DNA of 64,000 bases from Escherichia coli (GTDB lineage: Bacteria > Pseudomonadota > Gammaproteobacteria > Enterobacterales > Enterobacteriaceae). Under the pieces are notes generated by a model, which did not search any database, was not told the origin of the DNA, and saw nothing but the letters and a program-made list of their open reading frames with translations. This document shows positions 12,204 to 15,399 of the stretch, piece after piece. Each line of letters starts with the position of its first letter. Positions within the stretch are counted from its first letter, which is position 1. Location of the stretch: NCBI RefSeq assembly GCF_011045215.1, contig NZ_CP049201.1. The stretch is one strand, 5' to 3'. The position numbers were made by a program, and so were the translations under genes.

Positions 12204-13313
12204 TTACCCCCTGAATCCCGGCGGAATTTCGGTATCCGGTTCAGAAATATGATTCACACAACGCTGGTTGTTCGTGCCGCTTACCGGGAGCAACCAGGGG
12301 TTTTCAAAATTCCGGTCCGGTCCAAAAAACGTCGTCGCTCGCTGAACAAATTCCGTTCCCGCTTTCCCGGTCGCCGCCAGGTATCTCGCGTAACGCCTCA
12401 CACCATCCAGCATGGTCTCTGGTGGCACCCCCTCGCGCAATCTGGCCTTCCAGGCACTGAATGCGGATTTCTTCGGGTTTGCCCCGGCACGCAACGGGTA
12501 TTCCCGCCAGACCTGTTCGAACACATCCGGATAATCCACTCGTCCCACAGGCCGCCCGGTGTTTTCCGGGACTACCCGATCGGCTTCCCGCTGAATGGCG
12601 GAATCGGCTTCAGGCTGCTGCAGTTGGTGTGATTGCTCCGACCCTGCGGTCATCACCTGCTGCACAGCGCCCGAATCGGTTTTCAGCGCATACGCCGAAT
12701 CGGCTTCCGGTGTCGTGCCTGCTGGCTGACCAGAATTTACGGTCTGAACATCCCCTGCCTGGTTCGTGGTGTTTTTTTCGCCATGAGCTATAGTGTTTTT
12801 GTCCTGTTCTTTCTCCTGCTCCTGTTCCTGTTCTTGGCTTCGAAGCCCCTTAAAAGCCCCTTCGAAGCCCCTTACCGAATTTCGGCTATTATTCCGCCTC
12901 ACATCCAGATGGAAATCCGTTTTATATCTGTCGTAAAACGCTGACAGAAAAGCGTTTTCAGGTAATGATGCATACTCATTCCTGACACCTGCACAACGGT
13001 TATCGCCAGGCTTCAACGTTTCCCCAACCTGCCAGGCTGCCATTTCATGGACCCAGACCATCTCGGCATCATGGTCATAGCTACAAAAACCAGCTTCAAC
13101 AGCCCTTTTAAGCCCCTTTGAAGCCCCTTCCAGACCAAGCCCGGTTTCATGAGCAAGGTATAAAACTGGCAGGTAATACAAACCCAGCATATTTGCGTGA
13201 GGGGATGTCATCAGGTAAAAAGCAACAACTTGCGCTTCTGCACCCGCCTTTCTAAGTTCTCTCCCCGTTTCTCCCAGCCAGAATCGCGGAGAAACTTTTG
13301 CGTAATCACGCAT
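12204..13313 (-). CDS. replication initiator (O-like / YdaU-like) with internal iterons
   Basis: Track ORF trimmed to ATG 13311-13313 preceded by GAGG; immediately upstream of the helicase loader; contains iteron-like repeats and an acidic QEQEQEQEKEQ linker. Confidence 0.65.
   Translation of the reverse strand: MRDYAKVSPRFWLGETGRELRKAGAEAQVVAFYLMTSPHANMLGLYYLPVLYLAHETGLGLEGASKGLKRAVEAGFCSYDHDAEMVWVHEMAAWQVGETLKPGDNRCAGVRNEYASLPENAFLSAFYDRYKTDFHLDVRRNNSRNSVRGFEGAFKGLRSQEQEQEQEKEQDKNTIAHGEKNTTNQAGDVQTVNSGQPAGTTPEADSAYALKTDSGAVQQVMTAGSEQSHQLQQPEADSAIQREADRVVPENTGRPVGRVDYPDVFEQVWREYPLRAGANPKKSAFSAWKARLREGVPPETMLDGVRRYARYLAATGKAGTEFVQRATTFFGPDRNFENPWLLPVSGTNNQRCVNHISEPDTEIPPGFRG
12843..12873. 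repeat. iteron-like direct repeats, three AAGCCCCTT copies at 11-bp period
   Basis: Copies at 12843-12851, 12854-12862, 12865-12873 inside the O-like gene. Confidence 0.6.
13101..13129. repeat. second iteron cluster (AAGCCCCTT x2 plus a degenerate copy)
   Basis: AGCCCTTTT at 13101-13109, then AAGCCCCTT at 13110-13118 and 13121-13129. Confidence 0.5.
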
Positions 13314-13530
13314 GGCTACCTCATCTGGTGCCGAACCTTCCTCCGGATATAATCTGTGGTTCCCAATCGACAGAACCAGAGGAGGTTCGACATGTATTTT
13401 TTGAAAAGCCTTTATCAGGCTCATGTATTAAATGTTGCAGCAACAAACCGCTGGTGTAACAGCCCCGAAATGCTCCCGGATTACAGAGCCTGGCTGCGCG
13501 CCGAAACATACCTTCGTCTCGACATATTGA

Positions 13531-14040
13531 TTAGCGAACTTCAAAAAGAGACTGCATCCATTCATAACCTTCAGGGTATCGACGCTGTTCGCATTCTGGT
13601 ATCGCGCCATAGTGCTCTCTCAATAATTGAAGTGCGTCATCTCTCTTTTTCTGAACTGATTTTCTTGCTTCAACCAGCTCTGGAATCAGCGAATATCCCA
13701 CCGAAAGTGATCCAATACCCACCTCATGTTGACGAGCAGTTACAAGATGTGCCATACAACCAGCGTGCTGGATTGACTCCCTGCTCAGAGGCTGAATGGG
13801 ATCACTCTCTGCTGAAGAAATACCAAGATTTGTATAATCCTCAATAAGCCCGGCACACGCTTCTGCATCAGCCAGCTTTATTCTGGTTTCCTTGCGCTGC
13901 TCTCTGGCTGACAAACGCCAGAGCAGCGCATTAGCTTTATGTATCAACCACTCTGCCAGCTCCACATCAGATAAACCGCCACGCCAGATGTGCGGACTGT
14001 TTTCGTAAACGCTCAGTGTCAATTTTTTGTCATTACTCAT
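13531..14040 (-). CDS. hypothetical protein between YdaT-like and O-like genes (strand ambiguous)
   Basis: 169-aa ORF from ATG 14038-14040, 13 nt after the YdaT-like stop, weak RBS; overlaps a plus-strand ORF that has a strong SD. Confidence 0.4.
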   Translation of the reverse strand: MSNDKKLTLSVYENSPHIWRGGLSDVELAEWLIHKANALLWRLSAREQRKETRIKLADAEACAGLIEDYTNLGISSAESDPIQPLSRESIQHAGCMAHLVTARQHEVGIGSLSVGYSLIPELVEARKSVQKKRDDALQLLREHYGAIPECEQRRYPEGYEWMQSLFEVR

Positions 14041-14053
14041 ATTTATTACCCAA

Positions 14054-14479
14054 TTAATGCACAGCCAGAGTGTTTCCTGCCGGGCCACCACGATTCATCT
14101 GATCGAACAGAACGATCGCTGATGCAACGAAATCATCAATATCTTTCACCAGCCGTTCCTTCGTCTCTACCAACTCCCGAAAATAAGCGGAACTGTGGCT
14201 GCGCATTCGGGCCACCAGCGGAGGCGGCATTGCTTTTTCGATCGCTGGTAACAACGCCTGAATTTTTTTAACCGCATCAGGGGTGTCTTTATCCAGCCAA
14301 CGGAAAATTTTCTGGGTATTACGAGCCAGCGCTTCCGGATGCCTGTCGTCATATAGCTCCGGGAACGTCATACCCAGCTCAAAATAAGCCTGGGTTATTT
14401 CAGCTGCCGGAACTTTTTCACCGTCCGGATGCGCCCAGGCATTCATCGCCATACGGATGTGTTCATGCTTGATTTTCAT
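14054..14479 (-). CDS. YdaT-like regulator (CII-like position)
   Basis: 141 aa; N-terminus MKIKHEHI and length match remembered Rac YdaT; follows the Cro-like gene with a 17-nt overlap. Confidence 0.7.
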   Translation of the reverse strand: MKIKHEHIRMAMNAWAHPDGEKVPAAEITQAYFELGMTFPELYDDRHPEALARNTQKIFRWLDKDTPDAVKKIQALLPAIEKAMPPPLVARMRSHSSAYFRELVETKERLVKDIDDFVASAIVLFDQMNRGGPAGNTLAVH

Positions 14480-14738
14480 GAATCAACTCCGGTGTATTTG
14501 GTGTGTTAGCCTTATCTCCAGCAGGCAACCCGTCAGTTGGATTCGGGTATAAATCTGGTCGCAATTCATGAGGAGTCACCCCAGTTGCAATATAAATTTG
14601 ACGAACCCGTTCCCCCGTCGGAACTCGACCATTGTATTCATTTGCCCATTTGTGTATTTGAGATGGCCAAGCCCCTATTGCACGCCCTAGTGGACGAATA
14701 CCACCAGCAATCTTTATTGCTTTGTCCAATGCTGTCAT
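14463..14738 (-). CDS. Cro/YdaS-like HTH regulator
   Basis: 91-aa ORF divergent from the repressor gene; GGAGG upstream; helix-turn-helix-like segment GIRPLGRAIGAWPSQIHKW. Confidence 0.65.
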   Translation of the reverse strand: MTALDKAIKIAGGIRPLGRAIGAWPSQIHKWANEYNGRVPTGERVRQIYIATGVTPHELRPDLYPNPTDGLPAGDKANTPNTPELIHENQA

Positions 14739-14807: not shown

Positions 14808-14835
14808 TTGTTAGTGTTCACTGAACGGTTATAAT
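14808..14835 (+). promoter_or_regulatory. sigma70-like promoter for the repressor gene; transcript probably leaderless
   Basis: TTGTTA (14808-14813), 16-nt spacer, TATAAT (14830-14835); ATG at 14842, only 6 nt after the -10; palindrome GTTCAcTGAAC (14816-14826) in the spacer. Confidence 0.4.
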
Positions 14836-14841
14836 TGCTAA

Positions 14842-15231
14842 ATGGACATGAGAAAAAAGCAATACGACACCCCGCTAGCAGAAAGGTTAGATGCGATCTC
14901 TCAACAGCATCATTTAAGTGGTTCAGATTTAGCGCGTATCGCTGGTGTAGGTCGTTCATCAGTCAACGCATGGAAAAAAAGAGGAACAATCAGTAAAGAT
15001 TCCGCAGCCAAAATTGCAGAAGCCACAAACGTTTCCCTTTCTTGGCTACTGACAGGGAAAGAAGAGACAAATAGAGAAGCGCTTGATGATGACGAGAAGG
15101 CCCTGCTTGATGTTTACAGAAACCTGCCACCTGTAGAACGTAGAAATATGCTGGCAGCTTTTCAAATGCGACTTCAAAAACTGACCGAATTTTACTCAGA
15201 ATACGTCGACCCAATAACACGACAAAAATAA
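14842..15231 (+). CDS. prophage repressor-like HTH protein (XRE family, no peptidase domain)
   Basis: 129 aa; HTH segment LSGSDLARIAGVGRSSVNAWKK; divergent from the Cro-like gene across a 103-bp operator region. Confidence 0.65.
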   Translation: MDMRKKQYDTPLAERLDAISQQHHLSGSDLARIAGVGRSSVNAWKKRGTISKDSAAKIAEATNVSLSWLLTGKEETNREALDDDEKALLDVYRNLPPVERRNMLAAFQMRLQKLTEFYSEYVDPITRQK

Positions 15232-15399
15232 TTCTTTATTTTACAGAATCATACCGCCGCAAGGCGGTTTTTTTTACCTTTTACGTATTCATAATGTTGA
15301 CTTTTGTTCACCCAAAGAGAACAATGTATTCCATCAAAGCACAACGGTGCGACAGGTCTTAGTTCCGCTACCCCGGCGTTAAGGGGAAATGAGGTCAAC

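Follow-up and report, generated by a model that had tools for sequence, protein, structure and literature searches.

Can both strands of one stretch of DNA be kept as protein-coding genes at the same time? The question is raised by two open reading frames (ORFs) that overlap on opposite strands between a YdaT-like gene and an O-like replication gene in a 64,000-nucleotide (nt) stretch of Escherichia coli DNA (contig NZ_CP049201.1; the whole stretch is called the window here). We refer to the plus-strand ORF as P, to the minus-strand ORF as M, and to the loci with which the window was compared by numbers of the form L001. An earlier note on this DNA had given the coordinates of both ORFs, their 317-nt overlap, the AGGAGG Shine-Dalgarno (SD) sequence of P with its 6-nt spacer and the 13-nt gap between the YdaT-like gene and M, all of which proved exact when rechecked, and had held that one of the two ORFs is probably a real accessory gene. 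That choice did not survive: homologues, which the note had thought might turn up for one frame alone, were found at full length for each, and each frame shows purifying selection of its own. P and M are probably both genuine protein-coding genes, forming one mobile two-gene cassette whose 3′ halves are read from the same DNA in opposite directions. Comparison among lineages argues rather strongly for what lies beneath this reading, namely private 5′ parts that appear to be under ordinary purifying selection, 317 nt that appear to be doubly constrained, and an architecture that looks old. The features concerned are as follows.

13392–13847, plus strand: gene P, ATG at 13392, stop codon at 13845–13847, 151 amino acids (aa), ECs1072 family
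13531–14040, minus strand: gene M, ATG at 14040, stop codon at 13531–13533, 169 aa
13531–13847, both strands, tail-to-tail: dual-coding stretch of 317 nt, P codons 47–151 and M codons 65–169
13325–13391, plus strand: leader of gene P, delimited in an alignment of 19 loci

The SD of P (AGGAGG, 13380–13385) is followed by the spacer TTCGAC before the ATG, and the ATG of M begins 13 nt after the stop codon of the YdaT-like gene. A longer alternative GTG start for M is present at 14091; family alignments favor the start at 14040.

Homologues and Private Halves of the Two Genes

P matches the NCBIfam family NF033230 (“ECs1072 family phage-associated protein”) with 104.6 bits against a cut-off of 70, its residues 4–145 aligning to positions 3–141 of the 142 in the profile, and the RefSeq entry for the identical ORF (WP_000273724.1) carries the same family name. 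Full-length homologues were found at 87, 76, 74, 53, 50, and 49% identity, all of 151–153 aa. In the first 46 codons, which code for P only, the window and L005 differ at 18, 12, and 29 first, second, and third codon positions (position 3 > 1 > 2), and the conserved motif PDYRAWLRAETYLRLD lies within this part. An AlphaFold2 model built on a 10-sequence alignment has a predicted local distance difference test score (pLDDT) of 88.6 and a predicted template-modeling score (pTM) of 0.85, the overlapped part included, and according to AFDB the fold recurs in many uncharacterized Enterobacterales proteins of ∼150 aa. No PHROGs family matches the P of the window; the P of the second of the two clades of loci (clade 2) matches phrog_5286.

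M aligns with phrog_8304 from end to end (residues 1–169 on positions 1–169 of 169; E = 3.7e-119), and the M of a distant locus, L036, matches the same family (E = 3.2e-22). Homologues fall at 96–79% and 54–50% identity, with lengths of 162–185 aa, and a profile search of 1.84 billion representatives returned 20 clusters at E < 1e-10, of 136–197 aa. Common to the 20 clusters are the motifs SPHIWxGGL..ELAxWLxxKANAIL, YxxLGxSxxxxDPIxPLSxEAI, and PVGYSxLPDL, which lie both inside and outside the overlap. In the 63 M codons outside P, the window and L005 differ at 17, 13, and 35 positions (again position 3 > 1 > 2), and over the ∼50 single-coded codons of the N terminus the ratio of nonsynonymous to synonymous differences (pN/pS) comes to 0.19 in comparisons inside the E. 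coli clade and to 0.42 in those of deep lineages. NCBIfam has no family for M.

Either gene can be lost without the other. In L018, codon 34 of P has changed from TGG to TAG and the SD to AGGTGG, and M is intact (162 aa; L018:2126–2240, minus strand); this case comes from a single Logan contig, in which a sequencing artefact is possible. M is absent from L009, frameshifted in L011 and L012, and truncated in L039, with P intact each time. We count these losses, together with the confident fold of P, as support for two real genes. Since each gene has a private coding half, both strands appear to be coding, and the proposition that only one of the two is a gene is all but ruled out.

The frameshift in M (L011:3339–3835 and L012:374–870) lies near codon 50–55, in the non-overlapping part, with the two halves recognizable in two frames, and it agrees between these two independent assemblies. 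What this leaves of M may be a pseudogene, a site of recoding, or a gene for a short but functional form (one cluster is of 83 aa).

Constraint on Each Frame within the Overlap

In the overlap, codon position 1 of P faces position 1 of M, position 2 of P faces position 3 of M, and position 3 of P faces position 2 of M. Third-position G+C, whose comparison had been suggested as a check, does not discriminate between the frames of P and M, since their first codon positions coincide. Changes per alignment column were instead counted by the Fitch method on neighbor-joining trees, with two clades summed. In the frame of P, positions 1, 2, and 3 show 1.60, 1.02, and 2.53 changes per column in the single-coded part and 1.30, 1.32, and 1.68 in the overlap, so that the ratio of position 3 to position 2 falls from 2.48 to 1.28 (Fisher p = 1.4e-5); in the frame of M the corresponding values are 1.44, 1.09, and 2.60 versus 1.25, 1.65, and 1.33, and the ratio falls from 2.38 to 0.81 (Fisher p = 7e-16). 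Pairwise, the overlap differences between the window and L005 are flat over the three codon positions (38, 30, and 39). Against L009, which is without any M ORF and in which a second leader-plus-P-type cassette comes next, the third-position excess of P is restored (52, 41, and 69).

The wobble positions of conserved four-fold codons behave in the same manner: their entropy is 1.43 bits in the single-coded part versus 0.88 bits in the overlap for P (p = 0.023) and 1.27 versus 0.67 bits for M (p = 0.009), and several wobbles in the overlap are fixed (Leu CTG in 17 of 17 lineages, GTG in 12 of 12, Pro CCC in 15 of 15). OLGenie-type counts over the overlap in the E. coli clade give pNN 0.103, pNS 0.166, and pSN 0.211; where P is coded singly, pSN amounts to 0.352, and a sham M frame there gives 0.93. 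The resulting proxy for omega is 0.49 for P (confidence interval [CI] 0.30–0.78). Where a change would be silent in one gene, the other gene limits it, the constraint from P being somewhat stronger than that from M, and within the overlap purifying selection is attributable to each frame, more weakly to that of M.

The frames are also open where they would be expected to be interrupted. When one protein was held fixed and its synonymous codons were redrawn (interior codons only, 14 lineages), 1.1–5.4 stop codons per lineage were expected in the other frame, and none is seen in any of the 14 lineages, in either direction. The summed log10 P values are −24.4 and −23.8 on the assumption that the lineages are independent; synonymous sites are near saturation between deep lineages, and the window and L008 are related. 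That the openness of either frame is a by-product of the other protein is very unlikely.

A long shadow ORF, open by chance opposite the one gene that RefSeq recognizes, is a highly unlikely account of M, even though hundreds of E. coli genomes have P alone in their PGAP annotation, the fold of P is predicted with confidence and that of M is not, and L009, L011/L012, and L039 keep P without M. The 193 nt of M outside P carry a coding signature in the M frame (the pN/pS and codon-position order given above), and the M family comprises at least 20 clusters; the stop-free M frame in 14 of 14 lineages and the suppression of synonymous sites of P only where M lies opposite tell against chance as well, and L018 retains M in spite of the nonsense codon in P.

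A Conserved Leader Upstream of P

The ∼65 nt upstream of the ATG of P are conserved in all lineages, more strongly than the coding regions. The SD and start block, GGAGGTTCGAC-ATG, hardly varies among lineages with proteins of only 30–50% identity and is present in most of the distant loci too, and in the alignment of 19 loci the elements TGGTG, TAnnCT, and GGAGGTTC are invariant or nearly so. The leader of the window contains a −35-like CTGGTG (13325–13330) and, after 17 nt, a −10 TATAAT (13348–13353); Salmonella leaders have an extended −10, TGnTAGCCT, and those of clade 2 have TTGGTG, ∼17 nt, and TATTCT.

The leader also contains an inverted repeat, in which arm A (13332–13346) pairs with arm B (13376–13389) and the SD lies inside arm B, as well as a small hairpin, GAACC/GGTTC. 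In the helix between the two arms 84.9% of alignment cells pair, versus 33–55% when the partner is slid, and three pairs change on both sides; in L018, a T-to-A change in arm A restores pairing with the altered SD. The predicted folding energy is −26.3 kcal/mol for the plus strand (z = −2.8) and −32.5 kcal/mol for the minus strand (z = −3.4), and the hairpin is placed between the stop codon of M and the start of the O-like gene. No plus-strand terminator-like site was called between the stop codon of P and ∼14600, nor in 13100–14300; one weak plus-strand hairpin (14617–14629) stands ahead of the repressor gene.

With an SD and start block nearly invariant at ∼30 loci, it is scarcely credible that M, the ORF named in PHROGs, is the only gene and that the plus-strand ORF and its AGGAGG are there by chance. 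M does fit the direction of the operon, 13 nt after ydaT, and has its full-length match to phrog_8304, no PHROG being found for the P of the window. But the 46 P-only codons have a conserved motif and a coding signature, the model of P reaches its pLDDT of 88.6 from only 10 aligned sequences, its NCBIfam score is above the cut-off and clade 2 P is phrog_5286, and L009 has P without M, with a normal third-position excess.

At ∼90% identity, the leader is also found before unrelated cassettes in the ydaT-to-O slot of ∼60 other complete E. coli genomes (copies compared: window 13325–13391; L014:2487–2556; L015:2487–2556; L009:4486–4556). In L014 the leader is followed by a plus-strand gene for 83 aa, with a convergent gene for 98 aa abutting it, and both tandem cassettes of L009 and L010 are preceded by the leader. 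A second cassette type (L015:2554–3187; L009:4554–5187; L010:719–1174) has a plus-strand ORF of ∼151 aa (MSLMAVCQKIKNH.../MSMMSVYRKIEHS...) overlapped by a minus-strand ORF of 137–138 aa, and its annotation flips strands, the minus-strand ORF being the RefSeq gene in L015 and gene callers differing between L009 and L010. The M-like protein of this cassette (L015, L010) aligns weakly with the M family (hhalign E = 2.7e-4, probability 42%), and its P-like protein gave no alignment with the P family.

Distribution and Genomic Neighborhoods

The P/M DNA of the window is present at ≥99% identity in ∼450 of 5,426 complete E. coli genomes (∼8%), O157:H7, O26, O103, and O121 strains among them. An overlap of 257–323 nt with the identical frame relation occurs at ∼30 loci in which both ORFs are intact, down to ∼35% protein identity, each time next to a switch of the cI/cro/cII type; the prophages concerned are those of E. 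coli, of Salmonella, and of further hosts. The E. coli loci are L008 and L017–L020, of which L008 and L017–L019 have the cassette in the ydaT-to-O slot (the contig of L020 is short); L002–L007, L009, and L013 are Salmonella islands with integrase, Cox-like, Ash, and ExoVIII genes, and L011 and L012 are metagenome-derived.

For distant M sequences, 19 loci on viral contigs and one genome locus were available, and a P-family ORF lies on the opposite strand in 20 of 20. These ORFs encode 151–157 aa, and the motifs PTYRAWIRAEQLLRLD, LSFxE, and LPPCSExEWD are found at every one of the 20 loci. The gene order is cI-like (minus), cro-like (plus), M (plus) with P (minus), CII-like (phrog_101), and replication initiator; at these cro-to-cII loci, P matches phrog_5286 and M matches phrog_8304. 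The orientation is constant, M following the early operon and P sharing the direction of the repressor gene, and wherever gene calls or annotation exist, the neighbors are phage cI/cro/cII and replication genes or prophage-type tyrosine integrases.

The earlier note had taken the DNA between ydaT and the replication gene for inserted accessory material, which is borne out by other cassettes behind the P leader in the same slot elsewhere (L014, L015) and by the two-ORF unit in Salmonella integrase/Cox islands and in cro-to-cII slots. It had also remarked that a plus-strand gene here would be read against the early operon, an unusual arrangement; such does appear to be the case, the SD and start block of P being conserved and hence not a chance occurrence.

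Neither DNA searches nor tblastn gave a match for P, M, or a distant M among the 50,697 phage records of INPHARED, and two scans of genome contigs with M alignments yielded pattern matches that tblastn failed to confirm in every case. Prophages and IMG/VR viral contigs commonly contain P and M, and the carriers may mostly be cryptic or rarely isolated prophages.

Weighing the Two-Gene Interpretation

Several observations weigh against two full-length protein-coding genes, or against the expression signals proposed for them. The OLGenie-type proxy for omega of M is 0.62, with a CI (0.38–1.03) that touches 1, and at deep divergence such ratios saturate near 1 and are little informative, the tree-based counts being used in their place. 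Constraint in the overlap is weaker on M, whose second codon position is the most variable, and the clade L021–L031 by itself shows a P-only coding pattern there, on few substitutions. The AlphaFold2 model of M consists of long helices with a pLDDT of 62 and a pTM of 0.35. In the leader helix, G-U and A-C counts are symmetric (17 vs 18) and do not show which strand uses it, and a consensus promoter scan made no call at the leader, where we infer the promoter from its motifs. No match to P or M was found in Pfam (E ≤ 10), PADLOC, or the PDB, and no strand-specific RNA sequencing (RNA-seq), ribosome-profiling, or proteomic evidence for a product of either was found; ECs1072 appears in one microarray table with a 2.1-fold change in culture, measured with a probe that may not be strand-specific.

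Some of these points would be expected if both genes were real and only the N-terminal ∼65–80 residues of M mattered as protein, the rest being kept stop-free so that ribosomes stay on the early mRNA, where they would spare the replication genes from Rho polarity and protect the message from the complementary P transcript; the residues encoded there would then be under little constraint. The weaker constraint on M with its variable second position and the P-only pattern of the close clade L021–L031 are of this kind, as are short M forms of 68–99 aa (4 of 23 clusters found), a C-terminal end that varies from 148 to 169 aa in near lineages and up to 197 aa family-wide, and low AlphaFold2 confidence for residues 100–169. 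The pattern of the shallow clade, the low-confidence model, and the short forms are therefore reasons to retain this explanation. We nevertheless consider it unlikely: Y69, L72, G73, S75, D80, P81, I82, E88, P113, and L122 are nearly invariant over 20 clusters of 25–50% identity, third positions of P are down by a third in the overlap (2.53 to 1.68 changes per column) with four-fold wobbles fixed, and avoidance of stop codons limits only codon pairs of the type NTY/NCT-then-A, by our reckoning too few sites.

A Possible Two-State Arrangement

If P and M are both full-length genes, the anatomy of the locus suggests a joint scheme that we regard as quite possible, if short of probable. Ribosomes would read M on the early lytic (pR-type) mRNA, on which it directly follows the cro/cII-type genes, and P would be transcribed toward the repressor gene from the −10 TATAAT of its leader, with a start ∼30 nt before the ATG, and translated by way of its near-consensus SD. 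The two units would then collide head-on over ∼650 bp and yield complementary mRNAs, with P made in the repressed prophage, M made after induction or infection, and each damping the other. Because the units would be convergent and their mRNAs complementary, P (in the lysogen) and M (on induction) should exclude each other.

What the proteins do is a separate matter. That they act on the same process, P as a lysogen accessory (e.g., exclusion- or defense-like) and M as its lytic counterpart or antagonist, is distinctly doubtful. Doubtful, too, is a self-contained two-state module with mutually exclusive P and M states and proteins that are partners or antagonists, for example an exclusion or defense effector and its lytic neutralizer. 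Were such a module real, dual coding would have been selected for, since recombination, by which phage modules are shuffled, could then not part the two genes, and the ∼65-nt leader would be a portable expression element serving a wider class of lysogen-strand cassettes in this slot. It is a speculation that dual coding keeps the pair from being separated by recombination.

Comparison with Known Systems

The nearest described analogue is in the B3-like Pseudomonas phage Fc02, where olg1 and olg2, on the repressor strand, overlap gene 10 of the lytic ner operon, transcription from the distal promoter pC1 covers the overlapping genes before it reaches the repressor, both sides of the overlap confer exclusion, and expression data exist (PMC9936078). 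The likeness is one of layout: a repressor-strand lysogen gene is antisense to the gene after a cro/ner-type gene in the lysis-lysogeny region of a temperate phage, and here too P is directed toward the repressor gene, the sole terminator-like call between the two being one weak hairpin. Unlike the Fc02 genes, P and M are partners of ∼150–170 aa that overlap tail-to-tail over ∼105 codons at ∼30 loci, and they are known from sequence alone.

Antisense overlapping genes have also been reported from E. coli O157:H7, namely ano, asa, pop, and olo (PMC5960689, PMC6294744, PMC7103648, PMC9927249), and the three olo genes are stated to lie outside phage-derived regions. They are likewise long, non-trivial antisense coding overlaps in the same organism group, in which pipelines suppress one partner; to judge from titles and abstracts, each is an ORF that lies within an annotated gene or overlaps one, and RNA-seq and ribosome profiling brought them to light. 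Most accounts of such genes have them as young in evolutionary terms and limited in distribution. In contrast, neither P nor M is embedded, each has a private half, both families are diverse, and the evidence is evolutionary.

In phage lambda, oop is a leftward unit between cII and O that runs antisense into the early rightward operon (oop/pO) and yields a 77-nt non-coding RNA with its own terminator, antisense to the 3′ end of cII. Its slot is that of P in the window; other loci have the cassette between cro and cII. An oop-type RNA was considered for P and rejected, P being a conserved 151-codon ORF with an SD and the interval 13100–14300 being without a plus-strand terminator-like site. An Rfam search of 13200–14200 returned nothing beyond noise at E ≤ 1.

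Two further candidates were set aside. A type II toxin-antitoxin pair would be co-oriented, whereas P and M are convergent, and no toxin or antitoxin match was found in PADLOC, Pfam, or NCBIfam. As for an integron cassette, the inverted repeat is present only 5′ of P, where it encloses the −10 and the SD, and at the loci with gene calls or annotation no neighbor was identified as an integron integrase.

Annotation and Literature

RefSeq and NCBIfam name P, PHROGs names M, and other submitters and gene callers have M or both, the two ORFs being called as overlapping genes in L005 and L040. As the databases disagree, neither call is safe. The pattern amounts to a systematic annotation fault, in which pipelines that forbid long overlaps report identical DNA now as P, now as M, depending on the record. 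NF033230, phrog_5286, and phrog_8304 are single-protein entries without an assigned function, and none, as returned, indicates that its DNA is shared with an opposite-strand gene.

We found no paper that describes the P/M pair and none that mentions WP_000273724; a paper on the CP-933P switch contains none of the relevant terms, and the accessible part of a paper on the structure of YdaT mentions no gene downstream of ydaT (PMC9986795). The protein families are catalogued, and as far as we could find, no description exists of both being read from a single piece of DNA. The reality of long antisense coding overlaps in bacteria and phages is disputed. To judge from titles and abstracts, what supports the E. 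coli cases published so far and found here is the expression of single ORFs; the evidence for P and M is comparative sequence only, with the private halves of P and M as internal controls and L009 as a natural variant without M that shows the expected change. The locus is common, and since it adjoins an experimentally studied YdaS/YdaT switch of the CP-933P type, the interpretation is directly testable.

Other Features of the Locus

Around the cassette, the minus-strand early operon runs in the order cro/YdaS-like, YdaT/CII-like, M, O-like/DnaD-like, and DnaC-like. The features next to P and M are as follows.

12204–13313, minus strand: O-like/DnaD-like replication gene, downstream of M; phrog_1701; RefSeq start at 13313
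14054–14479, minus strand: YdaT (CII-like) gene, directly upstream of M; phrog_163, CII-like activator; “toxin YdaT family protein” in RefSeq
14463–14738, minus strand: cro/YdaS-like gene, member of the early operon
14469–14486: YdaT operator TTGATTTTCATGAATCAA, perfect match, at the ydaS/ydaT junction
14842–15231, plus strand: DicA-like repressor gene, toward which P points

The longest O-like ORF begins at 13424 and overlaps the start of P by 33 nt, and its alignment with phrog_1701 starts at residue 38. The 37-codon extension (13313–13424, minus strand) is the conserved P leader seen on the opposite strand.

The YdaT operator OM (TTGATTN6AATCAA), mapped in CP-933P, is matched by the copy at 14469–14486 (PMC9986795). 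Control of P by YdaT was considered and rejected: this known site is the sole perfect operator, and a site with two mismatches at 13527–13544 is within chance expectation.

Just upstream of the DicA-like repressor gene is a good plus-strand promoter-like site (14808–14835; TTGTTA, 16 nt, TATAAT), and just downstream of the gene is a strong plus-strand terminator-like hairpin with a T-run (15253–15268). These sites frame the end of any repressor-strand transcript begun at P.

In the relative L001, a three-gene set coding for a helix-turn-helix (HTH) regulator, a RelB antitoxin, and a RelE-ParE toxin stands beside the YdaT operator, and we take it to resemble the paaR2-paaA2-parE2 module of CP-933P. 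Where L001 has this set, the ORF list of the window has other small ORFs after the DicA-like repressor gene.

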